A stretch of 64,000 nt of DNA. Source: an uncultured virus (IMG/VR IMGVR_UViG_3300027754_000050). Its lineage: Duplodnaviria > Heunggongvirae > Uroviricota > Caudoviricetes. Below, one piece after another: positions 6,942 to 56,444 of this stretch. The stretch's first letter is position 1; every line of letters begins with the position of its first letter. A program made the translations under genes and the position numbers. The stretch lies in the IMG/VR virus record IMGVR_UViG_3300027754_000050. The stretch is one strand, 5' to 3'. The notes under the pieces are model-generated. The model was given only the letters and a program-made list of their open reading frames with translations, searched no databases and had not been told where the DNA came from.

Positions 6942-7046
6942 ATGAACTACCCACCCGATAAGACGGGCTGGTTTCCGCTCCAACCAACAGACCACTAAAA
7001 GCGGTCGTGCATCAGGACAAGCGGCTAACCCGGTCGTTCTGACCGT
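6942..7046 (-). ncRNA. TnpB omega-RNA / IS200-IS605 right-end-like structured element, copy 1
   Basis: Minus strand ACGGTCAGAACGACCGGGTTAGCCGCTT...GAGCGGAAACCAGCCCGTCTTATCGGGTGGGTAGTTCAT; homologous to 55469-55573 and 56341-56444. Confidence 0.7.
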
Positions 7047-7086
7047 TTTGTTTTTCGATTAAAACGCTACATTTTCATGCTTAATT

Positions 7087-7113
7087 TAATATAGTGTATA
7101 ATTTTGATTTTTT
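7087..7113 (-). promoter_or_regulatory. 27-bp putative ncRNA promoter, repeated at 35012-35038
   Basis: 26/27 identical to the sequence upstream of tRNA-Thr. Confidence 0.6.
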
Positions 7114-7123
7114 AACTAATGGG

Positions 7124-8044
7124 CTAGATTAGATAAACATCAAAATCTATTCTAATAACGTCATTCTCCGTGATCGCATTGCTCAATATGAATGTTCCTA
7201 AATTGTTACTTGGTGTAAAATGGTTTGCAGACCACGATTCAACCGTAGAATCCCAATATAAAACATCATAATCACTGTTTAGTTTAATTCCATTTACATA
7301 TACTCTTAAACTTCCTTCTACATAATGCGTGTTAACACTTGTAACCTGATAATTTATATAATCTGTCGTGATTGGTTCTAGATCATAGTAATGTCTATGA
7401 GCAAAATCCACAGATATATTGAGTACTGGACGCACAATATTTGGACTTTCTACTTCCCAAGATATATGTTCCGATGGATGTAATTTAAGAGATGTGTTGT
7501 CAAAATTAACAACGTTAGAAAAACAAGCGTTAGAAGGTACGCTAGTGCATATTATACCTGATATACAGCTTATACCTGATATACAACTTACGCATGAAAT
7601 AGACAGTATATCAGTGCATACCTCCAAAGAAAGACTTGTGGCTCCTTCTGCCATGCCAGCTATTTTAGCTCTTTCCGCTTCAATCATTCTTACAAATGGA
7701 ACAGGATTAACAACTTCTGAATATCCTAATGTGTTAACATAATAGTCTAGGTCTTCGGTAGAAACCGTTGCGGTATCATCTGTGTGTTTTGCTATATTGT
7801 GTAAAGCATCATCTATAGCAAGTGTTTTTATATCGCCGTTTTGCTCTATGGAATTGTCTAATCTGCTTGCAATGCTGGCTTGCGACCCAGCAGAGTCAAG
7901 CAATATTTGTTCTTGTATGTTAACTGCATTGTTTATAGCAACATCTCGATCTGATAAGGCTTTTAACGGTAAGTTGTCATATTCCCAATGATAAGGCTGA
8001 TTTGCAGCATAAAGAGGGACCGGTAATTTAGTTAAGTCTGGCAT
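7124..8044 (-). CDS. Putative virion structural protein
   Basis: GSLRVYVNGIKL...DY...FIL beta-rich C-terminus seen in virion proteins; Cys-rich ISCVSCISGISC insert. Confidence 0.55.
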   Translation of the reverse strand: MPDLTKLPVPLYAANQPYHWEYDNLPLKALSDRDVAINNAVNIQEQILLDSAGSQASIASRLDNSIEQNGDIKTLAIDDALHNIAKHTDDTATVSTEDLDYYVNTLGYSEVVNPVPFVRMIEAERAKIAGMAEGATSLSLEVCTDILSISCVSCISGISCISGIICTSVPSNACFSNVVNFDNTSLKLHPSEHISWEVESPNIVRPVLNISVDFAHRHYYDLEPITTDYINYQVTSVNTHYVEGSLRVYVNGIKLNSDYDVLYWDSTVESWSANHFTPSNNLGTFILSNAITENDVIRIDFDVYLI

Positions 8045-8074
8045 TATATTCTTTCTGTTTTTTCTACTAAACTT

Positions 8075-8227
8075 TTAATTAACGACTTTTTTCTCGCCAT
8101 TATCGATAATTTTATTCGTTTTAATATAGCTTATATTTTTTTTCCTCATTAAAATATTAATTTCTTTCATTACTTCCTTAATGAAATCAAAATTATATTC
8201 TGATTTATCTAACCAGTAATTTTTCAA
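8075..8227 (-). CDS. Small hypothetical protein (50 aa)
   Basis: TTG start after GGAAGG; MKNYWLDKSEYNFDFIKEVMKE...; fills the operon gap. Confidence 0.4.
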   Translation of the reverse strand: MKNYWLDKSEYNFDFIKEVMKEINILMRKKNISYIKTNKIIDNGEKKVVN

Positions 8228-8249
8228 GTTTACCTTCCTTATTTACGAA

Positions 8250-8720
8250 CTAAACGAATGAAAGTCTCCAATTGAACGTTATTTGTATTTCGCTGGTTTT
8301 ATTTAAATCAGGGAAAGTTACCATGCTGTAATAGTCATCATTTGCCATTTGTAATCCCATTTCATTTAAAGCATATCCATTAGCTTCATCAAATTTCAAA
8401 ACTGATGTGAACATAGCTTGTGTTGGTATTTCACTATCAACCGATGACATGACAGGCTTGGATGCTCTTGTTGTGCCAAACAAACCATTTCTACTGGTGT
8501 CAACGTATCTTTTAGCACCTGCTTGGGTCCCGCCATCACCAAAAACCATTCTAGATATGAAAAAGTTATATTCTCCATTAAAACTATGAGTCAAAGAACG
8601 TGCCAAGGCTTGTCGCCCTTTAGATAACACTGTATTTTTATATTCAAAAAAAACTATGTTTCCATTTTTGTTTTCTATGAATCCATCGACACAACCTAAT
8701 GCTCTTAAATTATCATTCAT
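8250..8720 (-). CDS. Baseplate/tail-fibre attachment-like protein
   Basis: NTVL..GR..LA...FGDGG...EANG..LNEMGL...FP.LNKT motif typical of tail-collar/fibre N-terminal domains. Confidence 0.55.
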   Translation of the reverse strand: MNDNLRALGCVDGFIENKNGNIVFFEYKNTVLSKGRQALARSLTHSFNGEYNFFISRMVFGDGGTQAGAKRYVDTSRNGLFGTTRASKPVMSSVDSEIPTQAMFTSVLKFDEANGYALNEMGLQMANDDYYSMVTFPDLNKTSEIQITFNWRLSFV

Positions 8721-8756
8721 TTTTCTATGCTTTCTTATAGATTGTTTACTTTTACT

Positions 8757-11700
8757 TTATTTAGGAGGATTGTCTTTATAATCAATCTTAAAAGATACTT
8801 CTTCCTCTTGTTTTATAAAGTCATTCAATTCGTCTTTTTTGCTATTTAAACTTGATACTTGTGGCTCTTCATCCGAAAAAGATATGAAAGAAATTACTGA
8901 TGGGTTCTCAATGTTTGATGATATTACTCCATCTATCATTCCTGATCCATTCCGGTCTATTATTTGGAAAGTGTGTTCTGGCTGATGAAAACGTTGTCCA
9001 GGTATGGTAGCACCTTGCTTTTCATATTTAAAAAACTCAACAGAAACTTCCGAGCCTCCATCGGTTAAAGTTTTCCAATATGTATTAGCTCCTGACAATA
9101 TAATAGTAGTAAATCCAGCAGGATTATTACCATCTATTTCAGTTATCCAATAAGAAACGTCATCTATAAAAACAATAAAATTCTCTTGAAACAAGTTATT
9201 ATCTAATAAATTATTATCAGAATAACTTTGAAGACCTAAAATTGTTTTTATATTTCCTTCTAGTTTAAGTTTTAATCCTTTGTGGCTTAAATATCCTATC
9301 TTTTCTGTTACAATTTTATCCCAAATGTATATGGTTAGTCCGTTGGCATCGCCTTCATCATATCCTGAAATATAATATTGATCTGTTGTGCCTTCCACTA
9401 TACCAGAGATATGATATTCATAATCGCCTATCTTTTGATAACAATTTTTATATTCTAGAACTTCTGAGACAGGTGTCACATATGGGCTTAAAGCAGTTAC
9501 AATGGCTCTTAAAGACACAGTTAAAGTCCCCTCAGAAATTACAGAATGGTGATAACTGCTGTTTCCTAAAGGCTCCATTAGATCGTATTCTACAGTGTCG
9601 TTTGATTGAGGTAAAACAGCACTATGATCTAATAATAAACTTCCGTCTGATAAAATACTTCTAATTGGATAGGTAGTATATCCATATTCTGCAATACCGA
9701 TTCTCCAAGCCTCATCAGCAAGTCCTTTTTCTACATCATCAAGGGTTTTAATTCCTAATGCTGTAAAGTCTTTACTTGAATCAATTAGTTTATAAACATT
9801 ATTTTGACTTATATTGCATAATGTATTGTAAATAGGTTGTACAAAATTATTTAAATCGAATACAAATGCACATGTATTTAATTCTGAATCCTGAAAAATG
9901 GAGTCGCAATTGGACCCAGAGATATCCTCATCTATAGGGGAATCAATTCTAACCGTGTTGCCGTCCGATTTACTTACTGTATAATCTCCAGATATCGGAG
10001 ATGGAGATTTTATACTGATAAAAGACTCGCCAGTAGAATTAACTCCAATAGTAGAAAGAACAACAGACGGGCAAAACATTAGTATTTCATTATTGTAAGC
10101 TATTCCATCCATTACTAAAACAGAACTTGAAACAGCCAGCATATCTCTTAGTATGCCTCCTATCAACTCTCGAGGGTAACCCCGCTCTACACCCATCATA
10201 AGTCTGTTGAAATAATTATGCGATCCAGAAGCAACAACAAAATCATGACCAGAGTATGTTGTTAAAAATTCTAAATTTTCTGTTGGGGACTCAACAAATT
10301 CATTAAATCCACCAGTAAAATTAAATGTGTGTAAAACAGCGTGAAAAGGGCTATTTTCTTGAATTATTTCTTTTGCTTCTTCTATTTTATAGCCCGATAA
10401 CTCTTCTATTTCCAACATAATATTATAGCTACTACTAACACAAGCTGTGCATGGATCTATAAAATTTTTGTCAATATCACAAGGATTTTTTGAATTTCTT
10501 ATGCTTCCATTGTATTCATCCATGTGATAAATATTTTCACTATAAGGAAACTCTGTTCTTATTTTTCCATATACAAGATATTCATGAAAAGGATTTCTAT
10601 TTGGTATTACAATATTAAACATAACGTCGTCTTCTGGTATGACTCTAACATTCCAGTTTTTGGGTGGATAAGTCTGATCTCTTTCTTCTCTATTGTCCAT
10701 AAGAGGCAATAAGCGAATGTAGCTTTCAATAGTTTGAGCCGTCTCATTAGGAATGTTCTCATAAAGATACAACACTTTAAGTTCATCTCCGTCCATCAAA
10801 GTAATTGGAAGCCAGCCGTCTATACCGTCTAATCCTTCTCCTTCCCAAGACATAGTTGTTACGTTGTCAACAGTGCTAAACGAAACATAGGAAGAACTAA
10901 GAGAAACCCAATCTTCTTCTGTGGTACGAAGCCAAATTTCGAAGTTGTTTTCATCCAATTCAAGAGCGACTTTTTCTAATATGAAGTCATTGCTTTCATC
11001 ATAAAAAAAAGATTCCTGCCAAGTGTAGGAAGATATTACTTGCCAAAGTTGCGTAATCTTATTTAAAACAATTCCACTATGTTCTAGAGCTTCATGTAGT
11101 CCATTTTTTGTTCCCTTTTTTTTGTATAAAGGAACTGCTCTTTTAATTTGACCGCGCCATCGAGTCGGATCATCCGTTCTTAATTTAAGACCAAAGTAAT
11201 TTGATAAATATGGCAATAAGAACTCATTTAAAGCATTGGGATCATGTAGATCAACGAGTTGATTGGTTAAATTTTCTAAAACATTAAAGCCCATGGCTAT
11301 TGTTTTATTCGTTCTGTCTATGACATCAGCACTAACATCAGAATCAGCCAAAGAAGATTTAAAAACTTCTGGAGTGTATCTTTCTAATAGAGTCGTATAT
11401 TTCTTTGGATCCGTGTAGTGCGTTGGTATGCTTGTAGTGGTTTCGGTGCTACCAGATAAACTGAATTTATAGTGCTGTGATAAAGTGCTTCCTGCAATTA
11501 ATGGGGTCCAAGTCCAACAAATAAAATAATCGCCTTCTCGCATTCCTTTCGGTTCCCACCTATATTTAAATTTTCCATATACCAGTTCTTCTTCTTCATT
11601 CATTTCTACTCTTCCTAGAAAAGAATTATCTAAGTCAGTAGAAAGCCAAGCCGGATACTCTTCGTTTCCTACAATGTGAACTGGTATAGCTTCTTTGAAA

Positions 11701-12014: not shown

Positions 12015-12024
12015 TTATTTCCTG

Positions 12025-13584: not shown

Positions 13585-13600
13585 AAATTCCTTGTTTTTT

Positions 13601-14026: not shown

Positions 14027-14042
14027 TATAATTCCTTTTTCT

Positions 14043-31333: not shown

Positions 31334-32632
31334 TCATCCTTTTTGATATGCTACCATTTTCATCCAATCTTTTATTTTTGATTTTGTTAAACCAATATTG
31401 GAGTTTTTAATTTCATGTGAATCCTTTGGATCAAAGTTATTCTTTGATAACCAATTATAAATTCTCACTAAGTAAGCAATATCTCGTGCTTCTTGGCTTG
31501 TCCAACCGCCAGAAGAAAGTAGATCGTAAACCATTTCTGGATCGTTATCTTTTAATACCCAAGCGGTACTCATCCATCTGTCTCCTTTGAAATTATCAGG
31601 CATTTCATTTGGATCAAATTCTATATTTGGGAAAAGAACAGAGAGAAGATCGATAGAATGAGCCATTTTCATAAATTTTCTAGGATCTGAATCGGGATGC
31701 TCCAGACCTTTAACAAATTCTTTCTTAACCAATTCCCTTGGAAGTTCTGCTACCTTATTCATGTTGTTTTGAAAAGTTTTTTGGTATTCTTCAGGCATAG
31801 TGTCCGGATTGCCATATCTTGAATTTATTCTTAGAAAACGTAATGCCATATTTGGATCTTCTTTTACTCTGTCTGCTATATTATCTCCAACAAACTTCAT
31901 CTCATTGTTTTTTAAGTCCGTTGCTCCTCCGTATGGGTCTATAAGTTCATTGTTGTCCCCATCTGGATTTGTCAAAGGGATATACAGAGAGTTGATGGTA
32001 AGATCTCTGTTGGCTGCGTCTTCTTCTATAGAGGCAGCGGTTTGTTTATCTTCTGGTTCTACGTTTCTACTTTTTGTGTTTTTAGAAAGAGTTGCTAAGT
32101 GGAATTCTTCATTATTAATTTCTATAGTAAACTCTAATTCTTTTCCTTGCTTGTCCCATTTAGAAAAATAGAATACTTTGTGTCCAGCACTATTTTCTGG
32201 AAGTTTTTCGTAACGACTTTCGTGATTGTGCTTCAAATCTTTAGGCTTTATTTCTACAAAATTTTCTTCTGATTTAGAGAGAATCATTTTTATTTCGCTC
32301 ACAGTAGCATCTGTTACTATGTCATAGTTTTTTGGAGTCTTACCTTTTAGGTGGTCTCGAACCGCCCCTCCGGTTAAATAAAGTATTTTTTTCTTGAGCT
32401 GTGGCTCGACTTCACCTTTAGACTTATCTATTGTTGTATATCCAACACCAACCTGATTTGATGAAGCAAATGCTTTTATTAATGGTCGTAAATTTGAATG
32501 AGAATTTTTATTTACATAGAATGGAGCAAACTCCTTAGATCCTGTATTTTTTTGCAATTTTATTTTAGAAGTTATAAAACTTTTTTCTTTAGATTCTTCT
32601 TCTTTAATCTGAGCGTATTGTGAAAATTTCAT
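31334..32632 (-). CDS. Class II tRNA nucleotidyltransferase (CCA/poly(A) polymerase family), divergent active site
   Basis: LYLTGGAVRDHLKGKTPKNYDIVT; EEDAANRDLTINSLY; IDPYGGATDL; RVKEDPNMALRFLR. Confidence 0.85.
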   Translation of the reverse strand: MKFSQYAQIKEEESKEKSFITSKIKLQKNTGSKEFAPFYVNKNSHSNLRPLIKAFASSNQVGVGYTTIDKSKGEVEPQLKKKILYLTGGAVRDHLKGKTPKNYDIVTDATVSEIKMILSKSEENFVEIKPKDLKHNHESRYEKLPENSAGHKVFYFSKWDKQGKELEFTIEINNEEFHLATLSKNTKSRNVEPEDKQTAASIEEDAANRDLTINSLYIPLTNPDGDNNELIDPYGGATDLKNNEMKFVGDNIADRVKEDPNMALRFLRINSRYGNPDTMPEEYQKTFQNNMNKVAELPRELVKKEFVKGLEHPDSDPRKFMKMAHSIDLLSVLFPNIEFDPNEMPDNFKGDRWMSTAWVLKDNDPEMVYDLLSSGGWTSQEARDIAYLVRIYNWLSKNNFDPKDSHEIKNSNIGLTKSKIKDWMKMVAYQKG

Positions 32633-35736: not shown

Positions 35737-36606
35737 ATGGACTACCTTGTTAACATAGAAAATACACCTTATTATCAATGGCAAATTGAGCTTCTTATAG
35801 AAAGCTTTAATGAAAAAAATGTCGCCGGAAATCTTTGCGTAGTTTTGCCAGTGCTCAATAATAATGATGTAATAAACAAGTATTTTTATAGAAATATTGC
35901 CAAGCACAACAGAAAAGTTCAATTCCATAATTTTGGAGAGAAAAAAGGTTGTGTATTATTAAACAAAATATATGCATTGCAATTAGCTTTATCTAACAAC
36001 CTAATTTCTCAGCCATTTGCTTTAATCGAGGCAGATTTAGTTCTGAAAAATCATGTTCCACTTACTAGCAACTCAGGGTTTCCTGAATTTTCTTTTTCTA
36101 TGGACCCATTTTTCACATTAGACTTAGCAGAAGAGTCTATGGGTCCATTTTGGTCTTGGTTTGGTAAAGATAAAACAGACATACAAACAAAATGGCTTTC
36201 AATTGGAGAATGTTATGCCTTTAATGGTTTCCCTCCACATTTCTTTTACAAAGTGGTAGCAGATGCAGAGGAACTAGCACTACGACAGATGTTAGAAGGG
36301 AAAAAAGTATGGGAGCACACCGTAAAAATAGCATTTATACTTAATATTATTGATAACTTCCAGAATATACGATGCCAAGGAGATTATGGCATAGTAATGC
36401 CACTCATGTCATCTGGAGAAACTTCTTTTATAAGTTATAAAACAGGATTCTTGCCAAGCTTTCATAAGAATATGTTTCAATATGTTGGTAATCTATCAGT
36501 CTCTTTAGGAGATCCTATAGAGGTTTTATCTCAAATACACTCTTCGCCAAATGCTGAGTATGTTTCACATATCGCAGCTCAAAGCATTTCAAAAAGAACG
36601 GGCTAA
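35737..36606 (+). CDS. Putative glycosyltransferase (HPAT/SERGT-like)
   Basis: YYQWQIELLIESF, LNKIYAL and LIEADLV resemble motifs of hydroxyproline/serine O-glycosyltransferases. Confidence 0.4.
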   Translation: MDYLVNIENTPYYQWQIELLIESFNEKNVAGNLCVVLPVLNNNDVINKYFYRNIAKHNRKVQFHNFGEKKGCVLLNKIYALQLALSNNLISQPFALIEADLVLKNHVPLTSNSGFPEFSFSMDPFFTLDLAEESMGPFWSWFGKDKTDIQTKWLSIGECYAFNGFPPHFFYKVVADAEELALRQMLEGKKVWEHTVKIAFILNIIDNFQNIRCQGDYGIVMPLMSSGETSFISYKTGFLPSFHKNMFQYVGNLSVSLGDPIEVLSQIHSSPNAEYVSHIAAQSISKRTG

Positions 36607-36607
36607 A

Positions 36608-37426
36608 ATGGGTAAAATAGGATTTTGTTTTACAGGAGAAGGAGCACGTGGTTCTATTCAATCTGGAATAGCACTCGGTTTATATAATAATGGAATTAAG
36701 GCAGACTATACAATTGGAGTATCTTCTGGTTCTATTTGTTCTGCTGCCTATTCTTATCTTGGTGCACAAGGTCTTACAGAAATGTGGCGGGATATAGATA
36801 ATATTTTTAGTGTATTCTCATTAAATTTTAATTTAAATTCCACAGGACTTTTAAATCAAAAGCCAATGGAAAAAATAGTTAAAAAAGCATTAAAAAATAA
36901 ACCAATTTGTGAAACAACTGTCTGCCGAATGAATATAGAAACGGGAGAGATGCAGTATGTTTCAAATCAGGCTTGCTCAATAGAAGAATTTGAAGAAGCT
37001 GTATTAGGAAGTGTAGCTATTACAGCACTTGTAAATGATAGAAATGGATGGGTAGATGCAGGAAGCAGACAATTAGCCCCATTAGAACAATGTATTCAGG
37101 CTGGTTGTGATGAAATCTATGTTGTAATGGGTCGTCCATTAGCTATGGTACATTGGAAAAAACCATCCGGATTTTTAAAGCCAATAAAAATGGCTTTTAG
37201 AGCATTTGATATTAACCTTCATGAAATAATGGTTAGAGACATTTCGTCTTGCATAAGAAATGAAGATGACCCAAAATATAAAAATGTTAATATACATTTA
37301 GTAGAACCAAACGAACTCCTTTTTGAAAGTATATATTTTAGCAAATGTAAACTTGGAGTTGAATACGGGTTAAACAATTATTCGATTAGTGACAAAAAAG
37401 GAATAGCTGCAATGACTGTAAAATAA
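36608..37426 (+). CDS. Patatin-like phospholipase
   Basis: GEGARG glycine loop, GVSSG nucleophile, DAG motif. Confidence 0.85.
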   Translation: MGKIGFCFTGEGARGSIQSGIALGLYNNGIKADYTIGVSSGSICSAAYSYLGAQGLTEMWRDIDNIFSVFSLNFNLNSTGLLNQKPMEKIVKKALKNKPICETTVCRMNIETGEMQYVSNQACSIEEFEEAVLGSVAITALVNDRNGWVDAGSRQLAPLEQCIQAGCDEIYVVMGRPLAMVHWKKPSGFLKPIKMAFRAFDINLHEIMVRDISSCIRNEDDPKYKNVNIHLVEPNELLFESIYFSKCKLGVEYGLNNYSISDKKGIAAMTVK

Positions 37427-38680: not shown

Positions 38681-39442
38681 CTAATCAATTAAATTCTTCA
38701 TAATGTTTTTTATCCATTTGTTATGCTTCATTACTCTTGTATGAGCACTTTCGTCTCCATAACTAGAATCAGGTTTTTTATCAGCAGCTAAAACAAACGA
38801 GTTAATTCCGGCAAGTTTTCCATCAATAAATAATCCTCCTCCACTGTCCCCGTGAGCAATACAAAATTCTAATGAAGTGAAATTTTGTTTGCTCATTGTG
38901 CAAAAAATAATGTCTCCTGTGACGGAGTCTACTTTGTTGCTACCAGCACGCCTTAAATTGTCAATTTTATTTTCTCCTGTGTACCCTGTTCCTGTGGACC
39001 CAAAACCAGCTATTCCACAGATTTTTCCAGTTTCATCATCGTTTTCATAAAGAGCAGGATAAAAAGGAATGTCTATTTCTTTCTTTGCATAACAAATAGC
39101 AATATCATTTTCACTAATTTTACCCAAAATGAAATCAGGATGTTTCACTATTTTGTCTAACAATATAACTTTGTCATCCACTACTATATGAGCATGCATC
39201 GCATCTTCGACAACATGAGCTGCGGTTAAAACCCAATGTGCATCAATGACAACAGCAGATCCGAAAGAGAATGTTGTGCTGTTTTTTTCATCATTTGTTA
39301 CACAATAAATTTTTACTACACTGTGATAATCTTTTGCATACTCTAAATATTTTGAATCTTCTACGTTATGACGTATGGTTCCGCCATTAGACACGATTGA
39401 CATACTTGAAAGTATGGCAAAAGCAAAAATCTTTAAGAGCAT
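38681..39442 (-). CDS. Secreted trypsin-like serine protease
   Basis: Signal peptide; WVLTAAHV, NDIAI, GDSGGGL. Confidence 0.9.
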   Translation of the reverse strand: MLLKIFAFAILSSMSIVSNGGTIRHNVEDSKYLEYAKDYHSVVKIYCVTNDEKNSTTFSFGSAVVIDAHWVLTAAHVVEDAMHAHIVVDDKVILLDKIVKHPDFILGKISENDIAICYAKKEIDIPFYPALYENDDETGKICGIAGFGSTGTGYTGENKIDNLRRAGSNKVDSVTGDIIFCTMSKQNFTSLEFCIAHGDSGGGLFIDGKLAGINSFVLAADKKPDSSYGDESAHTRVMKHNKWIKNIMKNLID

Positions 39443-39456
39443 TATGCTCCTTTCAT

Positions 39457-40317
39457 CTAGTGATTAGTGTCTTCTATCTTTGCTTGAAGTTCCGTAGGCA
39501 TTTTTTCTATTTCTTCAAAAGATGGTGCTTCTATAGAAGAATTTAAAACCCACATAACTTTCTCTTGCGTTGCCCAAGAAACCATTCTTCTCATTGGTAC
39601 AATTAAATTAAACGTTTCACCTGAGCCACGAACTAACATTCCAATATACTGACCATCCAAAAGATATACGCCACCGCCACTGCTTCCAGGAAAAGCAGTA
39701 ACAGTGGTCTGATCGAATATTGTTTTCGGACCATTATTTATAGAGACAGTTCTACCAATTTGACTCATAATGCCTGTTGTCATGCTGTTGCTGCCCATTT
39801 CGCCTAATAACGAGCCTACATGATAAAGTTGTGTTCCAATTGGAACTCCAACTCCGTCTTTATCCGTAAAAACCTTTCCACTAACATCTACGAATCCAAC
39901 TTTTCTGATCATGAGAATAGCGATGTCTTCGCCTTCTTTAGCGTCACTGTACTTTAATACTTTTGCATCAACGGATAGCTGTCCAACGGTTCTGCCGTTC
40001 TCTACAAGTTTTTTTACAATCTCAGCATCCTGAAACTCTACGATTTTTTTTATGGAGCCAGTTGGATCTACAATGCTTCTTGTAGAACGAAGCCCATCAA
40101 TAACGTGTGCGGCTGTTAAAACAAAATTAACTTTTTTGCTACCACCACTAAATTTTATATCTCGGGTGAATATTACTCCGCTTCCTTCAGAGGAAGCAAA
40201 CCCGCTCTTTGCCTTTACTGTGACGCTAATGTCTTGAAGGTACTTTGATACATCCTCAGAGAAACAGTCACTAGATAAAAAAACTACAGCAAAAATAGAC
40301 AAAAAAACTTTTTTCAT
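39457..40317 (-). CDS. Secreted trypsin-like (HtrA-type, no PDZ) serine protease
   Basis: Signal peptide; GSGV, LTAAHV, EDIAIL, PGSSGGGV. Confidence 0.88.
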   Translation of the reverse strand: MKKVFLSIFAVVFLSSDCFSEDVSKYLQDISVTVKAKSGFASSEGSGVIFTRDIKFSGGSKKVNFVLTAAHVIDGLRSTRSIVDPTGSIKKIVEFQDAEIVKKLVENGRTVGQLSVDAKVLKYSDAKEGEDIAILMIRKVGFVDVSGKVFTDKDGVGVPIGTQLYHVGSLLGEMGSNSMTTGIMSQIGRTVSINNGPKTIFDQTTVTAFPGSSGGGVYLLDGQYIGMLVRGSGETFNLIVPMRRMVSWATQEKVMWVLNSSIEAPSFEEIEKMPTELQAKIEDTNH

Positions 40318-40450
40318 TTGACTCCTTTTTAAATTACTTATAGTCTATTGACGAGAACTTTATAATAATATCGAAATAGGATGTGATTAGTTTTATGTTA
40401 TATGTATGCTGGTTGTTTATTTTTTTTAATTTAACTTAACTACATATTGC

Positions 40451-41410
40451 ATGATTTCAATTAAAGCTTTAAAAGTATGTTTGTGCATTTTTTTAACATT
40501 TGCTATTTTTATTACTAGAAATGTTATATTAGATTCTGGCAATATAAAAGTATTTAACGCTTCTCTACCATTTGACGTTAAAAACCCCAATAATATAGCC
40601 GTTCTTTTTACTATGACAGATGAAGGTGGGAGAATTGAAAATCTAAATATGATGAAAAGCACTTTTGAAGATGGGTCTTTGGGCTTTCATTGTGAAAAAT
40701 ATCACAATGTTTCATCTAAGACAATTTATGAGAAAATAAAGCAGGTGTCTTCTGAGTTGGACGAGGAAGGAACACTACTTTTATACTTTAATAGCCATGG
40801 TGGTGGAAGCGGCAAAAATTTTGCAATGCAAGCTAATGGAGCTAGCCTTAAATTCAGCAAAGTAATACGGTCTATATTAGAAGGTAAAAAAGTAAAAAGA
40901 CTTATAATTCTAGTAGATACATGCCATGCAGAAGGAGCAATAAACGAAGGCTTTCAAGGAGGCGGAAAGCTTATACGAAACATAAAAACCGATTCAATAG
41001 AATTGCCTAAACACTATAGTGGCAATAAATTGCCTCGTTTCCTACAGTTCTTTACAGATGAAGATAATCTTTTATATTATGGAGAAAATAGTGGAGCATA
41101 TGAAGAATTGCTAGTTATAAGCTCTTCTAGTAGTGAAGACTTGTCTATGAGAGGAGCGTTTGCAGAAAGGTTTAAGCGTTCTTTTAATGAAATAAAAAAT
41201 GATGAAAATCCAACTGTTGCGAGTTTCTTAAAAAAGTTTGCAGCTATGCACAATAATACTAAACAGCAGCCATATTATAAAGCTATACCAGAAGAAATAC
41301 TTAGTGAGCCTTTGTTCAAAAATTTACCATCAAGAGATATTGCAATAAAATCAAATGATGGAAAAACTTACAAGAAAAGTTATATACTGATGCCATTAAA
41401 AACGAAATGA
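40451..41410 (+). CDS. Caspase-like (clan CD) cysteine peptidase with N-terminal hydrophobic anchor
   Basis: LLLYFNSHGGG and LIILVDTCHA His/Cys dyad motifs. Confidence 0.75.
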   Translation: MISIKALKVCLCIFLTFAIFITRNVILDSGNIKVFNASLPFDVKNPNNIAVLFTMTDEGGRIENLNMMKSTFEDGSLGFHCEKYHNVSSKTIYEKIKQVSSELDEEGTLLLYFNSHGGGSGKNFAMQANGASLKFSKVIRSILEGKKVKRLIILVDTCHAEGAINEGFQGGGKLIRNIKTDSIELPKHYSGNKLPRFLQFFTDEDNLLYYGENSGAYEELLVISSSSSEDLSMRGAFAERFKRSFNEIKNDENPTVASFLKKFAAMHNNTKQQPYYKAIPEEILSEPLFKNLPSRDIAIKSNDGKTYKKSYILMPLKTK

Positions 41411-41414: not shown

Positions 41415-42215
41415 ATGAAAAACTTGTTAATGTGTGATCCTTCTTTTTATCAAATAGATTATGAAATTAATCCGTGGATGAGTGTACTTAAAAAAGCAAA
41501 CTCCAATTTAGCTATACAACAATGGAACGATTTAGTTTCTCTTATTGAAAAAGTTGGAGCTAAGGTACACAAAATGAATCCCATACCGGGTTTTCCAGAT
41601 ATTGTTTTTACGGCTAATGCAGCAATAGTTTTTCAAGATATTGTATTACTGTCAAACTTTAAATACGCTGAAAGAAAAGGAGAGAAAAAACACTATAAGG
41701 AATGGTTTGATGCACATAGTTACAGAACTTTTGAACTTCCTGAGTCGCTTATCTTTGAAGGTGCTGGGGACGTTTTATTAGGAGAGGAAGGATATATCTT
41801 TTTTGGAAGTGGATTCAGAAGCGAAGAAAATGCATATCAATATAACATATGGGATGCCATATTTAATCTGAAATTCAAATCTATCCCTTTGAAATTAGTT
41901 GATCCATATTTTTATCATTTAGATACTTGCTTTTGCCCACTAAAAGGCAAACAAATTCTTATACATTCTCCAGCTTTTGAAAAAGAAAGTCTAGATATGC
42001 TAAAAAGCAGGTTTGATCTTATAGAAGTTCCAAAAAATGATGCTGCGAATTTTGCTTGCAACGCTGTTCTAATAGAAAACAATATAATAATACCATCAAA
42101 CTGCGAAGAAACAAAAAACTTGTTGCAAGGTAATGGATACGAGGTACATGAAACAAATATGAGCGAATTTATTTTAGCTGGCGGGGCATGTCGTTGTTTA
42201 ACATTGGTAATTTAG
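41415..42215 (+). CDS. Amidinotransferase / DDAH family protein
   Basis: YEINPWM, PDIVFTAN, FEGAGD, FYHLDTCF, GGACRCLTL. Confidence 0.92.
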   Translation: MKNLLMCDPSFYQIDYEINPWMSVLKKANSNLAIQQWNDLVSLIEKVGAKVHKMNPIPGFPDIVFTANAAIVFQDIVLLSNFKYAERKGEKKHYKEWFDAHSYRTFELPESLIFEGAGDVLLGEEGYIFFGSGFRSEENAYQYNIWDAIFNLKFKSIPLKLVDPYFYHLDTCFCPLKGKQILIHSPAFEKESLDMLKSRFDLIEVPKNDAANFACNAVLIENNIIIPSNCEETKNLLQGNGYEVHETNMSEFILAGGACRCLTLVI

Positions 42216-49620: not shown

Positions 49621-49677
49621 ATTTACACTCACTTATTGGTATGACAATAGAAATATATATAGGGAATAGGGTCTATT

Positions 49678-50334
49678 TTGATTAAAATTAAATACAAGAT
49701 AAAAGAGGTTTTTCCAAATGTATTTGCTGTTGTTGTTAAAAATGACTATCAAAGAGGTATGCTTTTTTGCAAAGTACAGGAATTTTACGAGTGCAGTAAC
49801 AAAAAATTCATTAACAAAAGATTTTCTATCTGGGAATTTCAACAATGGTACGCAAAAAAAAATAAAGGAGTATTCTCATACCCTAGTGACTATGAAGGAT
49901 TTAATATTCCTCTAGAAATAGCCGTAAAATTTCAAAGAATTAATGCTATAGAAACACCATATGATAAAAAAATAAAAGAAATAACCGACACTATTTCCAG
50001 TACTAGAAAAAAAGCATATATCATAGGAGTTAAAAGCCTGCGAAGTAGAGTTTTTAAACATGAATTATGTCATGCTTTGTATTTTTTAAATAAAGACTAT
50101 AAAAAAGATACGGATAAAATAACCAATTCATTAAACAAAAAAGAATATAAAAGATTTGTTGCAAATCTTAAAAAATTAGGATACAATAAAAATGTTATCA
50201 AAGATGAAATACAAGCCTATATGGCTACAGATATTGATGAAAGAGTTTTAAAAAATATTTGCAATAAAAATAGTTTGCATAAAAGATACAAATCAGTGCT
50301 ATCAAAATATTCCAAAAAAAGGAAAAAAAAATGA
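49678..50334 (+). CDS. HExxH metalloprotease-like protein
   Basis: KHELCHAL...DEIQAY. Confidence 0.6.
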   Translation: MIKIKYKIKEVFPNVFAVVVKNDYQRGMLFCKVQEFYECSNKKFINKRFSIWEFQQWYAKKNKGVFSYPSDYEGFNIPLEIAVKFQRINAIETPYDKKIKEITDTISSTRKKAYIIGVKSLRSRVFKHELCHALYFLNKDYKKDTDKITNSLNKKEYKRFVANLKKLGYNKNVIKDEIQAYMATDIDERVLKNICNKNSLHKRYKSVLSKYSKKRKKK

Positions 50335-51590
50335 AACCAGAAAGCTTGATGATGACATACGGATATAAACCGTCCCTGTCAGAAGGTGCTTTGAAATGCC
50401 CAATATTTCAAACTTCAACTTTTGTTTTTAATTCCGCAATGGAAGGTAAAAGATTTTTTGAACTAGCATATGGAATAAGAGAAAAAGACAAAGGAGAAGA
50501 ATTAGGATTAATATACAGCAGATTAAATAATCCAGATTTAGAAATACTTGAAAACCGGCTGTGCTTATGGGACGAAGCAGAAGATTGTGCGGTTTTTGAA
50601 AGCGGAATGTCTGCTCTCTCTACAGCTTTTTTAGAATTCACAACTCCAGGTGATTTATTTGTTTACTCCCGACCAGTATACGGAGGAACAGACCATTTCA
50701 TTAATCACTTCTTAAAGAAAATACAAGTCGAAGCAGTAGGTTTCTATGCCACAGACTCTAAAGAACAAATTATTAAAAGAATTGAGGAAACAGGAAAAGC
50801 AAATCGACTGACAATGATCCATATAGAAACTCCTGCAAACCCCACTAATGTTTTAATTGATATTGAAATGTGTGCGGAAATTAAAAAACACTTCTCTACA
50901 CAAGAAAAACCAGTTATTCTTTCTGTGGATAATACTTATATGGGACCTATTTGGCAGCACCCTTTGAAACATGGAGCAGATTTGGTTGTTTATTCTGCAA
51001 CAAAATATATCGGTGGACATTCTGACGTTATTGCCGGTGCATGCTTGGGATCAAAAAATCTTATCGGAAAAGTAAAATCATTAAGAACATTCTTGGGAAA
51101 CATGGCAGGACCATGGACAGGATGGCTACTCATGAGAAGCTTGGAAACATTAAAAGTCAGAATGGAACAACAAGATAAAAACGCACAAAAAGTAGCACTT
51201 TATTTGAAAAATCATCCAAAAATAGAAAAAGTTTACTACTTAGGATTTATAAATGACGGAAACGATCAAAAAGAAAAAAATATTTATGAAAAACAATGCA
51301 CATCAGCAGGTGCAATGATCTCTTTCGATATTAAAGGCGGCGAAAAAGAAGCATTCCAATTCTTAGACGCTTTAAAACTAATCAAACTAGCAGTGAGTTT
51401 AGGAGGAACAGAAAGCTTGGCAGAACACCCGCAAACAATGACGCATGCAGATGTATCAGAAAAAGATAAGCAATTAATGAATATATCCGAGAAATTAGTA
51501 AGACTATCTGTCGGAGTCGAACATTATAGCGACATAATAGAAGATATAGAACAAGCACTTTCTTGCGTTGACACAATAATTACATTCTGA
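50331..51590 (+). CDS. Methionine gamma-lyase / cystathionine gamma-synthase family PLP enzyme
   Basis: PIFQTSTF, YSRLNNP, ETPANP, VDNT, SATKYIGGHSD, AVSLGGTESL, VRLSVGVE. Confidence 0.93.
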   Translation: MKPESLMMTYGYKPSLSEGALKCPIFQTSTFVFNSAMEGKRFFELAYGIREKDKGEELGLIYSRLNNPDLEILENRLCLWDEAEDCAVFESGMSALSTAFLEFTTPGDLFVYSRPVYGGTDHFINHFLKKIQVEAVGFYATDSKEQIIKRIEETGKANRLTMIHIETPANPTNVLIDIEMCAEIKKHFSTQEKPVILSVDNTYMGPIWQHPLKHGADLVVYSATKYIGGHSDVIAGACLGSKNLIGKVKSLRTFLGNMAGPWTGWLLMRSLETLKVRMEQQDKNAQKVALYLKNHPKIEKVYYLGFINDGNDQKEKNIYEKQCTSAGAMISFDIKGGEKEAFQFLDALKLIKLAVSLGGTESLAEHPQTMTHADVSEKDKQLMNISEKLVRLSVGVEHYSDIIEDIEQALSCVDTIITF

Positions 51591-51603
51591 TACAATTACA
51601 GAT

Positions 51604-52287: not shown

Positions 52288-52300
52288 AACTAGGAAATAT

Positions 52301-52567
52301 ATGCCATACATCACTACAGAAAATAGAAAAAAATATGATGTGCAAATCAATCAATTAATTGATCAAATAGCAAGTAACAATGCCACAGATGGAGATTTAA
52401 ATTATATTATCACAAAACTACTGCACTCAGCATTTAATCTAAAAGACCCAAAGTATACAAGAATAAATACGGCAATTGGAGTGCTTGAATGTTGTAAACA
52501 AGAACTCTATAGAAAAATTGCAGCACCATATGAAATTGAAAAATGCACAATTAACGGCGATGTATGA
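52301..52567 (+). CDS. Conserved phage protein (DUF6899-like)
   Basis: MPYI...GDLNY.IT...GVLECCKQELYR....PYE..K...NGDV. Confidence 0.75.
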   Translation: MPYITTENRKKYDVQINQLIDQIASNNATDGDLNYIITKLLHSAFNLKDPKYTRINTAIGVLECCKQELYRKIAAPYEIEKCTINGDV

Positions 52568-54075
52568 ATAATTATGACGTTATTATCGTAGGAGCAGGTC
52601 ACAACGGGCTAATAGCTGCTTGCTACTTGGCAAAAGAAGGAAAAAAAGTCCTAATTTTAGAAGCTAATAACGAAGTAGGAGGTGCAACAAAATCAAATAT
52701 GCCCTTTAAAGGATTGAAAGCAATAATTTCTAGCTACTCATACTTGGTTTCATTAATGCCAAGTCAAATCATATCAGACCTAAAGTTAAATTTTGAAACA
52801 ATACCAAGACGAATATTATCGTATACGCCATACCTAAAAAACAACGAATACAATGGACTATTAGTTCATCGAAACTCAAACGAAAACACAGAATCATTCC
52901 AAAAACTAACAGGATCAAATAAAGAATCAGAAAATTGGAGTAAATTCTACGAAAGAATAAATGAATTCGCAAGCATCGTACAACCTACTCTTTTAAAACC
53001 ACTTCCTACAAAAAGTGAATTAAAAAATAAAATGCCTGCCGATACTTGGAATATGCTCGTTGAACAACCTATCGGAAAAACACTAGATGAACAGTTCAGT
53101 GATGATATAATAAAAGGACTGATCCTTACAGATGGACTCATAGGAACATTCTGCTCAGCATATGAAATGCAAGCAAACATATGCTTTCTATACCACATAA
53201 TAGGAGGTGAATGGAAAGTACCAAAAGGAGGAATGGGATCATTAGTAGAGGAACTGTATCAACTCGCCATAAAATCAGGTGTTGATATTAGGGTAAACTC
53301 TAAAGTTAAAGCAATAACACAAAATGAAGACTTTGTAACAGCAACCCTAGAAAATAACGAAACATTAAAAGGAAAATTCCTGCTGTCGAATGCAGCACCA
53401 CAAATATTGGAACGATTACTCGGAGAAAATATACAAGAAACTCTCGAGGGATCTCAAGTAAAAATCAATATGCTACTTAAAAAATTACCAGAGTTTAAGT
53501 CAGGAATTAATCCAAAAGATGCATTTGTAGGAACACTGCACATCAATGAAAGCTTCTCACAACTCCAAAAAGCATACACCGAAGCAAAAAATGGAGTGAT
53601 ACCAGAAGAACTACCTCTTGAATTATATTGCCACTCACTATCTGACCCCTCTGTTATAAACAATGACACAAACCAGTCTTTAACAGCATTCATTCTGCAC
53701 ACACCTGCTAAACTATTTGATGAAAACAACGAAGAAACTAAAAGAATAATCAAAAATAAGGCTCTTGATGCAATAAATCAATACTTAGTAGAACCAATTG
53801 AAAATTGCTTTGAAATAGATCAAAACGGAAACCAGTGCTTAGAAATTAAATCCCCTATCGATTTACAAAAAGAAATTGCACTGCCTCGTGGAAATATATT
53901 CCATAAAAATTTATCTTTTCCTTTTAAAGACGATGATTCAAATGCAAAATGGGGCGTCGAAACAAAACATCCAAGAATATTCATATGCGGTGCAGGAGCA
54001 ATTCGAGGAGGAGGAGTAAGCGGAATACCAGGACACAATGCAGCAATGGCAATACTAGAACAAGAACAAATCTAG
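52564..54075 (+). CDS. Phytoene dehydrogenase-like FAD oxidoreductase (PYROXD2-type)
   Basis: YDVIIVGAGHNGLIAACYLA, PKGGMG, GNIFH, GGGVSGIPGHNAA. Confidence 0.9.
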   Translation: MNNYDVIIVGAGHNGLIAACYLAKEGKKVLILEANNEVGGATKSNMPFKGLKAIISSYSYLVSLMPSQIISDLKLNFETIPRRILSYTPYLKNNEYNGLLVHRNSNENTESFQKLTGSNKESENWSKFYERINEFASIVQPTLLKPLPTKSELKNKMPADTWNMLVEQPIGKTLDEQFSDDIIKGLILTDGLIGTFCSAYEMQANICFLYHIIGGEWKVPKGGMGSLVEELYQLAIKSGVDIRVNSKVKAITQNEDFVTATLENNETLKGKFLLSNAAPQILERLLGENIQETLEGSQVKINMLLKKLPEFKSGINPKDAFVGTLHINESFSQLQKAYTEAKNGVIPEELPLELYCHSLSDPSVINNDTNQSLTAFILHTPAKLFDENNEETKRIIKNKALDAINQYLVEPIENCFEIDQNGNQCLEIKSPIDLQKEIALPRGNIFHKNLSFPFKDDDSNAKWGVETKHPRIFICGAGAIRGGGVSGIPGHNAAMAILEQEQI

Positions 54076-54077
54076 CA

Positions 54078-54106
54078 TTGACAATACATACTAAAAGGAA
54101 TAAATT
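54078..54106 (+). promoter_or_regulatory. Sigma70-type promoter
   Basis: TTGACA-N17-TAAATT. Confidence 0.55.
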
Positions 54107-54112
54107 AATCAA

Positions 54113-54547
54113 ATGAGCGAAACTTATAACATACTGAATTTAAAGAAATATGCCGAAAGCATCAGAAAAAATGCATCAATATCAATATTTCAAAATGAAA
54201 AAATACTAAACATTGAAGGCTTAACACTACCAAACACAATAAATGGTTATATTACGATAAAACAAGTATGCTTTATAATTAAAAATCATGTAGTAGGATA
54301 TAGTAGTGAAAATAAACCAATCATCGATGAACATGGCTACAATAACGCTTTTGAAGAAGTTAGAGGCTGGATCGCTAATTGTATTTTTTCTAAACTAGCA
54401 GCAAATAATATTCTTGAGTGCAACTGGGATAATGAAAAAGAAGAAATGATGTTTTGGATAGAGAAAGAAAAAGAAGAATTTTTGCCGCTACTTCCCAAAT
54501 GGATAGTGAAATGGCTCCAATCAAACGATGTTGACAATTCTGCTTAA
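54113..54547 (+). CDS. Hypothetical protein
   Basis: 144-aa ORF behind a promoter. Confidence 0.6.
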   Translation: MSETYNILNLKKYAESIRKNASISIFQNEKILNIEGLTLPNTINGYITIKQVCFIIKNHVVGYSSENKPIIDEHGYNNAFEEVRGWIANCIFSKLAANNILECNWDNEKEEMMFWIEKEKEEFLPLLPKWIVKWLQSNDVDNSA

Positions 54548-54559
54548 ATATGGTATGTT
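54531..54559 (+). promoter_or_regulatory. Sigma70-type promoter for uvsE (near-leaderless)
   Basis: TTGACA-N17-TATGTT with extended TG; ATG follows at 54566. Confidence 0.55.
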
Positions 54560-54565
54560 GTGGGA

Positions 54566-55555
54566 ATGGGAATTAGATTCGGACTTTGCTGTATATTTCG
54601 TGATGAACCAATTAAGTTTAGGACGACCACAGCATCTTACGTTTTAAAAATGGATCGTTCCGATGGTCTTCTTAAAATAAGCGATTTATGCAAAACTAAC
54701 GCAAGCAGCCTGCAAGAAGCATTACAGTACTGCCATAAGAATGATATTAATAACTTCAGAGTAAGCAGTAACATTCTTCCATTAAAAACACATCCTGTTC
54801 TAGGATATAATGTTGAAGATCTGCCCGATGGGGAAAATATTATCAACCTTTTTAAGGGTGCTGGAGAATATGCCAAATCCAAAAATATAAGAACCTCTTT
54901 TCATCCTAGTCAATTCGTGGTTTTAAACTCTCAAAAGCCACAAGTTGTTGTGCAATCGCTACAGGAAATTGAGTATCAAGCCGAAGTTTCTGAGTGGATT
55001 AATGCTGATGTTGTTAATGTTCATGGAGGAGGGGCATACGGCGATAAAATAAAGGCACTATCTGATTTCTCACATGCCGTAGATAGACTTTCTGAAAGAG
55101 CCAGAAGTAAATTAACAATAGAAAATGACGATAAAACATATACTCCATCTGATATTCTTCCATTATGTAAAGATCTAGGAATACCATTAGTATACGATGT
55201 GCATCACCATAGATGTAATAAAGATGGAATTTCAATCGAACAGGCGACACAAGCAGCATTAGCAACTTGGAATAGGGAACCTATGTTTCATATTTCCAGT
55301 CCAATTGAAGGATGGAGTGGAAAAAAACAGAACAGCCATCATGACTTCATCAATATAGAAGACTTTCCAGAGTGCTGGCTTGATCTAAACATTACTGTTG
55401 AGGTAGAAGCTAAAGCTAAGGAAGTTGCCATATTGCAACTCATGGCACAGTATGGCACAATAAAAAGAACGGTCGGAACGACCGGATTAGCCGCTTGCCA
55501 TGATGTAAGACCCGCTTTTAGTGGGCTGTACTTCGGAGCGGAAACTCACCTTTAA
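54566..55555 (+). CDS. uvsE: UV damage endonuclease UvsE, C-terminus extended through the omega-like element
   Basis: FRVSSNILP, HPSQFVVLNS, HGGG, IENDD, YDVHHH, HISS, EVEAKAKE. Confidence 0.92.
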   Translation: MGIRFGLCCIFRDEPIKFRTTTASYVLKMDRSDGLLKISDLCKTNASSLQEALQYCHKNDINNFRVSSNILPLKTHPVLGYNVEDLPDGENIINLFKGAGEYAKSKNIRTSFHPSQFVVLNSQKPQVVVQSLQEIEYQAEVSEWINADVVNVHGGGAYGDKIKALSDFSHAVDRLSERARSKLTIENDDKTYTPSDILPLCKDLGIPLVYDVHHHRCNKDGISIEQATQAALATWNREPMFHISSPIEGWSGKKQNSHHDFINIEDFPECWLDLNITVEVEAKAKEVAILQLMAQYGTIKRTVGTTGLAACHDVRPAFSGLYFGAETHL

Positions 55556-55573
55556 CAGGGGTTGGTAGTTCAT
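55469..55573 (+). ncRNA. TnpB omega-RNA-like element, copy 2
   Basis: ACGGTCGGAACGACCGGATTAGCCGCTT...GAGCGGAAACTCACC...GGTAGTTCAT; encodes TVGTTGLA, like TnpB C-termini. Confidence 0.7.
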
Positions 55574-55611
55574 AATTTGAAGCACCTTTTTTCGTCCACT
55601 CTGAAGCCAGA

Positions 55612-56217
55612 CTACATCCTATCGATCTGATTCTGGAACTTCTCCCACTCGGCGTCGGACAAACCCTCCGGCCTCTTGACATCCTTGCCGACCCTCTTGA
55701 CATAAGTGTCCACGGTCTCGCCCGGCAAGGACGAGGCTCTCGTATTCGCATCCGAGCTATCTAGTGGTTTTGGGTAGTCCAGTGCTTTCCAGAGAGCTTT
55801 CTGATAGCCTACGATCCTCTTCCCTCTGCTATTTCTTACGGGTACGGTTCTCTTGAATCTGGCCTCTCTCAGTATCTCTTCGAATTCATGGAAGTTCATA
55901 GCACTATTTAAATTTTCGGCTCTTCGTTGTTCCCCAAATGGCGATGGAGAATTCATATCTTTTTCGGCTGCTTTTTGTGCTTCAGGTGGAAGATCTTCCC
56001 AATCCATTATGTGCAGTCCCAGTTGTTTGGCATTTGGCATGCTAGACAAGTAAGAGAGTCTTGCTAAAGGCGAATTTGCCTGCCACAGTCCTGCAGCCGC
56101 TGCGTTCGGTTTTTTTAGATAATGAATAGGCGGTGTAATTTGCCTGCCTGTAGCGACAGGTGATTGTCCAGTTGTCATGTTTTCTTTTAAAGACAACCAA
56201 TCTTGAAATGTTTTCAT
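55612..56217 (-). CDS. Hypothetical protein with CTS-like N-terminus
   Basis: MKTFQDWLSLKE after AGAGG RBS; 3' part is GC-rich. Confidence 0.7.
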   Translation of the reverse strand: MKTFQDWLSLKENMTTGQSPVATGRQITPPIHYLKKPNAAAAGLWQANSPLARLSYLSSMPNAKQLGLHIMDWEDLPPEAQKAAEKDMNSPSPFGEQRRAENLNSAMNFHEFEEILREARFKRTVPVRNSRGKRIVGYQKALWKALDYPKPLDSSDANTRASSLPGETVDTYVKRVGKDVKRPEGLSDAEWEKFQNQIDRM

Positions 56218-56304
56218 AATTTTTCCTCTTTTTATATATAGCATCTTATGCGAAAAAACCCAGAAGATAAAAATTCTGCACCTAAGTCTACGGATCGCAT
56301 CCTA

Positions 56305-56333
56305 TTGCAGCTTATGGCACAGTATAGTACAAT
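56305..56333 (+). promoter_or_regulatory. Sigma70-like promoter for omega copy 3 and the tRNA cluster
   Basis: TTGCAG-N17-TACAAT; paralogous TTGCAA-N17-CACAAT at 55433-55461. Confidence 0.55.
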
Positions 56334-56340
56334 AAAAAGA

Positions 56341-56444
56341 ACGGTCGGAATGACCGGGTTAGCCGCTTGCCCTGATGTAAGACCCGATTTTATCGGGCTG
56401 TACGTTAAAGCGGAAACGCACCTTACACAAGGTGAGCAATTCAT
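56341..56444 (+). ncRNA. TnpB omega-RNA-like element, copy 3, abutting tRNA-Asn
   Basis: Same scaffold, ending CAATTCAT immediately before tRNA base 1. Confidence 0.7.

Follow-up and report, generated by a model that had tools for sequence, protein, structure and literature searches.

What three complete guide RNA scaffolds of the transposon-encoded nuclease TnpB do in a stretch of phage DNA that carries no tnpB gene is the question raised by the locus described here. The stretch, referred to below as the window, comprises 64,000 nucleotides (nt) of an uncultured tailed virus of the class Caudoviricetes (IMG/VR record IMGVR_UViG_3300027754_000050). An original prediction, made from the letters and a list of their open reading frames (ORFs), described an omega-RNA-like element of about 105 nt at three sites and interpreted the copies as maintained, separately promoted guide or decoy RNAs. 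All three copies are found at these sites, with homology starting about 6 nt further 5' (at 7052, 55463 and 56335). The assignment of the three elements as tnpB-less right ends of ISDra2-type members of the IS200/IS605 group, each with a complete omega-RNA scaffold, is firmly supported by sequence comparison.

Identity of the elements

Copy 1 occupies positions 6942–7052 on the minus strand; copies 2 and 3 occupy 55463–55573 and 56335–56444 on the plus strand. A covariance model, R1, was constructed from 12 intact tnpB genes (11 of IMG/VR contigs and one of contig L002 of a sister strain), using their 3' ends and leaving out the window copies. R1 has exactly three matches in the window, at 81–90 bits and E-values of 1e-15 to 2e-17, all over the full length of the model (positions 1–113): copy 1 at 89.6 bits (E 1.8e-17), copy 2 at 88.6 bits and copy 3 at 81.3 bits. 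The predicted identity as omega-RNA and IS200/IS605 right end is thus recovered by a model derived from tnpB-linked sequences only. The copies align with one another across about 110 nt. Their 18-nt core, GACCGGNTTAGCCGCTTG, occurs three times in the window, against 0.03 occurrences expected from 100 shuffles; the exact core pattern has 0 matches in IMG/VR.

Searched against 82 sources (80 IMG/VR tnpB loci, L002 and a second sister-strain contig, L003), R1 yields 72 matches. By coordinates, 67 of them overlap the 3' end of a tnpB gene (66 of the 80 IMG/VR loci, and L002). The remaining five are the orphan copy of L002, a partial copy in L002, the ortholog of copy 1 in L003 and two copies beside tnpB remnants. 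Bacterial tnpB loci, mostly from cyanobacteria and Firmicutes, have a match in 59 of 80 cases, at 25–76 bits. These scores lie below those of the window copies, and the orphans therefore belong to a phage-associated subclade. By blastn, copy 2 aligns with the tnpB 3' end of contig L087 at 81% identity over 118 nt. All aligned sequences (16 of 16) end at GTAGTTCA(T/C) or GCAATTCAT and are divergent beyond. Many of the 120 best TnpB homologs listed end in ...RTVGTTG(I/L)AACPDVRPAFSGLLVGAETH..., which agrees with the protein tail TVGTTG(L/I)A named in the original prediction. The C-terminus of the L002 TnpB, ...AACPDVRPAFSGLLIGAETHL, is the same as that of the translated orphan copies.

The reported absence of tnpB from the window is upheld. 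None of 32 window ORFs belongs to a TnpB family by Pfam, and tblastn with six TnpB proteins detects no more of tnpB in the window than its final ~28 codons, which lie at the three sites. Overlap with an adjacent tnpB 3' end is absent at the three window sites and present for the tnpB-linked copy of L002. A weak tblastn match of TnpB residues 360–391 at 63894–63995 (E 0.048) is rejected, as no tnpB-like frame is found there. A word-based protein search with the 52-amino-acid (aa) frame of copy 3, run at longer lengths, returns nothing, the method being of limited reach; the tails are detected through the full-length TnpB.

The Rfam family RF02841 (Ref70, Enterococcus small RNA 70) weakly matches 55464–55577 and 56336–56445 over its full length (at best 26.4 bits, E 0.045), far under its gathering score of 115. 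Copy 1 has no Ref70 match and only chance-level Rfam rows. Copies 2 and 3 share with Ref70 a 5' AAGAAC-hairpin-GG..AGCC...GGAAA layout. Possibly, Ref70 is a guide scaffold of the TnpB or TldR type as well. A hammerhead-like CUGAUG...GAAAC motif is rejected: its spacing does not fit what we take to be the consensus, and it has no Rfam match.

Secondary structure and pseudoknot

Each copy has four covarying stems (P1–P4) and TTCAT as its end. Alignment confirms in all copies the features described in the original prediction: P1 as the hairpin CGGTC-N5-GACCG, the stem CCGCTT/AGCGG, an inner hairpin that covaries, a last hairpin that varies, and TTCAT as the common end. Pairs were counted in the 72-hit alignment (51 distinct rows), which is fitted to the model and favours nested helices; paired cells amount to 94.8%, against 68.5% in shuffles. 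Compensatory, both-side change occurs in 35 of 37 pairs, and pairing falls to 33–45% when the partners are slid along.

A pseudoknot between the TTCAT end and an internal TGA had been proposed. Covariation supports a different one, in which the P1 loop GAAC pairs with the tail GUUC at nucleotides -6 to -3. This helix is absent from the model; it is 98% paired, with compensatory change in 3 of 4 pairs and covariants GAAU:AUUC, GGCU:AGUC and GGAU:GUCC. All three window copies are able to form it. In copy 1 (minus strand), P1 pairs 7045–7041 with 7035–7031, and the pseudoknot pairs GAAC at 7039–7036 with GTTC at 6947–6944. In copy 2 (plus strand), P1 pairs 55470–55474 with 55480–55484, and the pseudoknot pairs 55476–55479 with 55568–55571. 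The pseudoknot of copy 3 (plus strand) is compensated, with loop GAAT at 56348–56351 and tail ATTC at 56439–56442.

In 14 tnpB genes, the 150 nt upstream of P1 contain no predicted conserved structure, and the orphans thus hold the whole structured scaffold. The ISDra2 omega-RNA is reported to share this architecture: its scaffold measures 116 nt and has four stems, nucleotides -5 to -3 form a pseudoknot with the stem-1 region, a UUUA loop lies at -20 to -17, and the 5' region is dispensable (PMC10097598). A contig of run X2, with a loose end at window position 56383, carries a further scaffold variant, whose inner hairpin GACAGCT-TTT-AGCTGTC is also compensated.

Positions of the copies and neighbouring genes

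Copy 1 is located between two minus-strand ORFs of the tail region and is preceded by 70 nt of AT-rich spacer. Its would-be guide, the 16 nt on the 3' side of the scaffold (6926–6941, minus strand), spans the ribosome-binding region and the ATG (6933) of ORF 6397–6933. No families are assigned by PHROGs and Pfam to the ORFs flanking copy 1 or to ORF 55612–56244, which lies between copies 2 and 3.

Copy 2 is fused to the 3' end of uvdE, a UV-damage endonuclease gene at 54560–55555 on the plus strand (Pfam UvdE, E 9.8e-60, residues 22–272). Similarity to phage UvdE genes extends by tblastn to residues 293–298 of 331. The last ~30 uvdE codons are copy 2, read in frame within the open frame of uvdE. 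Copy 3 is directly preceded by a duplicated uvdE 3'-end fragment (56303–56334, plus strand), recognised by aligning the copies with their flanks; segment 56303–56424 is 89% identical by blastn to L002 3115–2994. Because of this fragment, copies 2 and 3 are not independent, and we infer that they descend from a single element that was already fused to uvdE when it was duplicated.

The final base of copy 3 (56444) immediately adjoins the start of a tRNA-Asn gene (GTT anticodon; 56445–56517, plus strand; ARAGORN, Rfam tRNA 69.9 bits). The sequence proposed as the guide of copy 3, the first 16–18 nt of this gene, is for that reason a tRNA 5' end. The DNA strand of all three copies is the sense strand of the neighbouring genes, so that read-through transcription of the scaffolds is plausible.

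The sister strain, its tnpB and the variable locus

A metagenome scan with a two-part pattern retrieves two sister-strain contigs, L002 and L003, and one chance match in GC-rich DNA (L001), which is rejected. The copy 1 ortholog, identical in its scaffold, is carried by L003, in a 6-kb alignment that is 98.8% identical. Zero changes over the 111 nt of this scaffold are unremarkable alone, given an overall divergence of 1.2%. The short spacer upstream of copy 1 (7053–7123) has many differences from L003 2900–2983, in contrast to the unchanged scaffold of 111 nt.

L002 is 98.3% identical to the window on either side of the copy 2/3 locus and contains an intact tnpB of 413 aa exactly between copy 2 and tRNA-Asn. 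The product has the Pfam domains HTH_OrfB_IS605, OrfB_IS605 and Cas12f1-like_TNB, reaches 286 bits (cutoff 100) with the NCBIfam model 'RNA-guided endonuclease TnpB family' and matches the ISDra2 TnpB of known structure end to end (E 5e-60). Residues D187, E276 and D371, which we take to be the RuvC catalytic triad, stand at columns invariant in a 26-sequence alignment. A TnpB of 98% identity is carried by another contig (P0001).

Homology between window and L002 stops exactly at the T of the copy 2 TTCAT (55573) and resumes 17 nt before tRNA-Asn. Between the break points, the window has a GC-richer, strain-variable cassette (55574–56302) with one ORF (55612–56244, minus strand, GC up to 51%), then the uvdE fragment and copy 3. 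In L002 this interval is taken up by tnpB with its right end, a partial right end of 75 nt and a relic of 15 nt. The tnpB segment of L002 starts exactly after TTCAT, and no hairpin like that of a left end is found in the 60 nt upstream of the gene. Contigs of run X3 carry a third, different sequence after the TTCAT at 55573, and one run has the L002-type joint. The copy 2/3 locus is a strain-variable hot spot.

Several further observations concern this locus and its relatives. The three right-end pieces downstream of the L002 tnpB (L002:1530–1764, minus strand) are each terminated by TTCAT, are spaced at about 37–41 nt before tRNA-Asn and have a repeat-spacer-repeat look. Two GC-rich stretches of the window, 55574–56302 (up to 51%) and 58350–58710 (up to 56%), contain small ORFs with no family match and with similar N-termini (MKTFQDWLSLKEN... 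and MKKFHEWLKIRES...); both stretches look like imported cassettes. A small ORF ending in ...RDFM..YIKEDK, whose product we assume to resemble ribbon-helix-helix proteins, directly precedes tnpB in many phage contigs. In other phage contigs tnpB presumably follows the 3' end of a Y1 transposase gene, tnpA. Two operon types appear to exist within one TnpB clade (L085–L094 compared with L095–L099).

Transposon ends and target-adjacent motif

Left ends were screened at 21 loci. TTTAT precedes all recognisable ones (10 of 10); another 10 loci have no left-end-like motif, and one match is doubtful. The motif is not forced by the search, since the pattern permitted TT[TC]A[TC]. Relatives have TTCA(T/C) as their right end. 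By the terminology of Meers et al. (PMC10055086), TTTAT is likely the target-adjacent motif (TAM) and TTCAY the transposon-encoded motif. TTCAT as the TAM of the clade is rejected because of the 10 left ends that follow TTTAT.

No left end is found near any window copy: the upstream sequence is AT-rich spacer for copy 1 and uvdE coding sequence for copy 2. A loose left-end pattern has 7 chance-like matches in the window. The match near copy 3 (56223) lies in the promoter region of the cassette ORF and has a weak hairpin (-6.2 kcal/mol). Lacking any left end nearby, the copies are solo right ends and not the gene-less elements known as PATEs (palindrome-associated transposable elements).

Conservation of the scaffolds

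Copies 2 and 3 differ by 20 substitutions over 110 columns, a divergence that followed the uvdE fusion. Three pairs are changed on both sides and still paired, including a pseudoknot pair (C:G to U:A), and 2 pairs are broken. In 20,000 simulations of random, uniform substitution, the probability of at least 3 compensatory pairs is 0.0066 and that of at most 2 broken pairs is 0.0014. Both independent lineages, copy 1 and the ancestor of copies 2 and 3, retain the whole scaffold, which starts within ~10 nt of P1. At 17 positions that are at least 95% conserved among 25 tnpB-linked copies, copies 1, 2 and 3 show 1, 0 and 2 departures.

Expression and terminator-like sites

RNA run X24 contains only the segment 55952–56224 (an exact match, within the cassette ORF) and tRNA-like pieces of other organisms. 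The sequencing runs are available as contigs, and their coverage is no evidence either way on scaffold expression. Read on the opposite strand, the P1 hairpin of each scaffold precedes a T-run and resembles an intrinsic terminator by consensus score. These sites are at 55470–55484 and 56342–56356 on the minus strand and at 7031–7045 on the plus strand. The site in copy 2 lies just downstream of the convergent cassette ORF.

Functional interpretation

The reading tentatively preferred here, at close to an even chance, is that the copies are stand-alone omega-RNAs which can still be loaded in trans by the TnpB of the phage population. In its favour are the completeness of the scaffolds with their covarying pseudoknot, the intact tnpB in the sister strain, the structure-preserving divergence of copies 2 and 3 and the published cases of stand-alone omega-RNAs that work in trans. 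They would have arisen in at least two events, one for copy 1 and one for the ancestor of copies 2 and 3, fused to uvdE before its duplication, and everything 5' of the scaffold would have been lost in each. The scaffolds would be transcribed by read-through from neighbouring genes. The TnpB of the population would load them in trans, with the 16 nt after each TTCAT as the guide, and the loaded complex would cut genomes that have the TTTAT TAM beside the same flank and lack the insert. Cutting of insert-free genomes would favour an allele that bears the scaffold, which would be kept or copied (homing), and not an attack on host genes. In the present tnpB-less strain, the orphans are probably starting to drift.

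A number of results weigh against this reading. There is no tnpB in the 64-kb window. The separate promotion of the copies originally postulated finds no support, as sigma-70-like sites near them are at chance level (2 against 1.8 expected, 1 against 2.2 expected). Neither do the searches bear out guide or decoy activity on host or phage targets: the three flanks have no second match in the window beyond chance and no TAM-adjacent target there, and guides 1 and 3, as exact 18-mers, have 0 matches each in IMG/VR. Processing of tRNA-Asn by RNase P would cut copy 3 exactly at the junction of scaffold and guide. The pair counts come from an alignment fitted to the model. The simulation remains compatible with gene conversion from active right ends, and the compensatory changes could have been imported in this way from tnpB-linked copies. 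Window copies have 3, 5 and 6 mispairs in 34 pairs, against 0–2 in most close tnpB-linked copies, and R1 scores of 81–90 bits against 96–127; the orthologous L002 orphan scores 114 bits, above all three window copies. Copy 2 differs from this ortholog at 12 of ~110 columns, the flanks at only 1.7%, with a net loss of ~3 pairs. This looks like the start of decay in a strain without tnpB at the locus, judged from a single comparison.

The main rival reading is that the copies are inert scars: solo right ends left at recombination-prone sites by deletion or replacement of tnpB elements, incidentally transcribed and without function. Their good folds would then be owed to a recent origin and to gene conversion by copies that are active. 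We consider this a serious possibility, somewhat short of an even chance. Related phages do in part show decaying ends of insertion sequences: L002 has tnpB and, at the same locus, nested and progressively shortened right ends (full, 75 nt and 15 nt), and other phage contigs contain decayed copies accompanied by tnpB remnants (L102:958–1044, L085:1259–1410). The lower scores and additional mispairs of the window copies, the pairs lost in copy 2 and the failure to find a promoter or a target point the same way. Scars do not readily account for the divergence of copies 2 and 3 after the uvdE fusion, which preserved structure (P = 0.007 and 0.001) and compensated the pseudoknot, for the retention of the whole scaffold in both lineages with trimming at its 5' edge, or for the few departures at conserved positions. 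The original claim that the elements are maintained is half supported: the structure-preserving divergence of copies 2 and 3 speaks for it, the lost pairs of copy 2 and the low scores in the window against it.

A role independent of TnpB, as a bidirectional terminator or insulator, an RNA-stability or processing element near tRNAs, or a recombination site for cassette shuffling, is unlikely. It would suit the terminator-like sites opposite all three copies, the position of the copy 2 site relative to the convergent ORF, the three different flanks found among strains 3' of the TTCAT at 55573 and the contact of copy 3 with a tRNA gene. A terminator or recombination site needs only P1 or sequence identity, which leaves the conservation of P2–P4 and the pseudoknot unexplained, and the terminator-like sites come from consensus scoring alone. 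Whole-record scans reveal no such use of the element: 7 of 7 matches in 4 IMG/VR records are tnpB-linked, and GenBank record LR756511.1 has none. By the same scans, three clean orphans in 64 kb are unusual.

The interpretation first offered, in which separately promoted guides or decoys steer TnpB, TldR or Cas12f to genes of the host or of rival phages, is very improbable. The scaffolds are complete, as it demands, and TnpB-derived, guide-bearing repressors are known from prophages (PMC10705468; bioRxiv 10.64898/2026.09.22.753285). The flanks, however, come from the phage itself (they are the beginning of a tail-region gene, the edge of a cassette and tRNA-Asn), the searches for second flank matches and promoters gave the negative outcomes described above, and the sole linked TnpB keeps D187, E276 and D371. 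What survives of that interpretation is the omega-RNA identity and the missing tnpB; a maintained, separately promoted guide or decoy role is not borne out by these results. An extension of the preferred reading to a natural multi-guide TnpB system is doubtful: orphan guides and a nuclease supplied in trans at co-infection would cut insert-free rivals, cassettes would spread by repair, and the L002 scaffold ends with their short spacers would be an early step toward a CRISPR-like array.

What makes the locus significant is that a huge phage from fresh water carries complete TnpB guide scaffolds without an effector, with the nuclease gene polymorphic in the population at the same locus. The natural pair of strains with and without tnpB could serve to test selection on stand-alone omega-RNAs and TnpB-driven homing. 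A well-supported covariance model is supplied for a phage-associated clade of ISDra2-like omega-RNAs, together with pseudoknot covariation and the inferred TAM TTTAT.

Source phage and further features of the window

The window belongs to a large phage of 35% GC content and encodes proteins of the tail and baseplate, an ORF of 3442 aa and three tRNAs. Its nearest relative in GenBank, an uncultured phage of 595 kb, shares only 34.5% protein identity, across 54% of a tail-region protein of 1085 aa. Runs that hold the copy 2/3 locus are freshwater and lake metagenomes. In addition to tRNA-Asn, a tRNA-Tyr (GTA) is located at 56581–56664 on the plus strand (ARAGORN and Rfam). Of 4227 Rfam models searched against the window at gathering thresholds, only matches to the three tRNAs pass, and blastn matches of the copy 2/3 region to GenBank phages are limited to tRNA-Tyr. 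Auxiliary genes of the window (31334–32632, 36551–37426, 38681–41410, 41415–42215, 50331–51590 and 61266–61760) include a nucleotidyltransferase of the PolyA_pol/CCA-adding type, a patatin-like phospholipase, two trypsin-like proteases, a caspase-domain protein, a DDAH-like enzyme, a Cys/Met pyridoxal phosphate (PLP) enzyme and an extracytoplasmic function (ECF)-type sigma factor.

Comparison with known systems

The orphan scaffolds are not a new kind of element, as effector-less omega-RNAs acting in trans are already published. Stand-alone omega-RNAs of the systems named OMEGA (for obligate mobile element-guided activity) function in trans according to Altae-Tran et al., as summarised in PMC10691335, and PATEs are presented by Meers et al. 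(PMC10055086) as gene-less IS200/IS605 derivatives that encode omega-RNAs. The window copies resemble both in having effector-less scaffolds and their own flanks as guides; a TnpB that may be compatible is encoded elsewhere, here in a sister strain. They differ in their location in a huge phage, where a repair gene has one copy fused to its 3' end and another copy adjoins a tRNA, and they differ from PATEs in the lack of a left end, so that they are not obviously mobilisable.

The guide RNAs of TldR are similar in their TnpB-type scaffold, fixed guide and location on a mobile element or phage. They are distinguished from the window copies by the TldR effector: no tldR gene is seen here, the linked TnpB keeps its three acidic residues, and nowhere else in the window do the flanks match a promoter.

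The closest system is ISDra2 of Deinococcus radiodurans (PDB 8EXA, 8H1J). Its TnpB is the one that aligns end to end with that of L002. Common to both are a scaffold of ~105–116 nt with four stems, the pseudoknot of nucleotides -6 to -3 with the loop region of the first stem, a UUUA-type loop that closes the last stem and a guide that begins right after the transposon end. The window copies differ in having no adjacent tnpB. The TAM is TTGAT in ISDra2 and, by inference, TTTAT in the phage clade. The closest relatives of the L002 TnpB are found in viral contigs (up to 54% identity) and not in bacteria.

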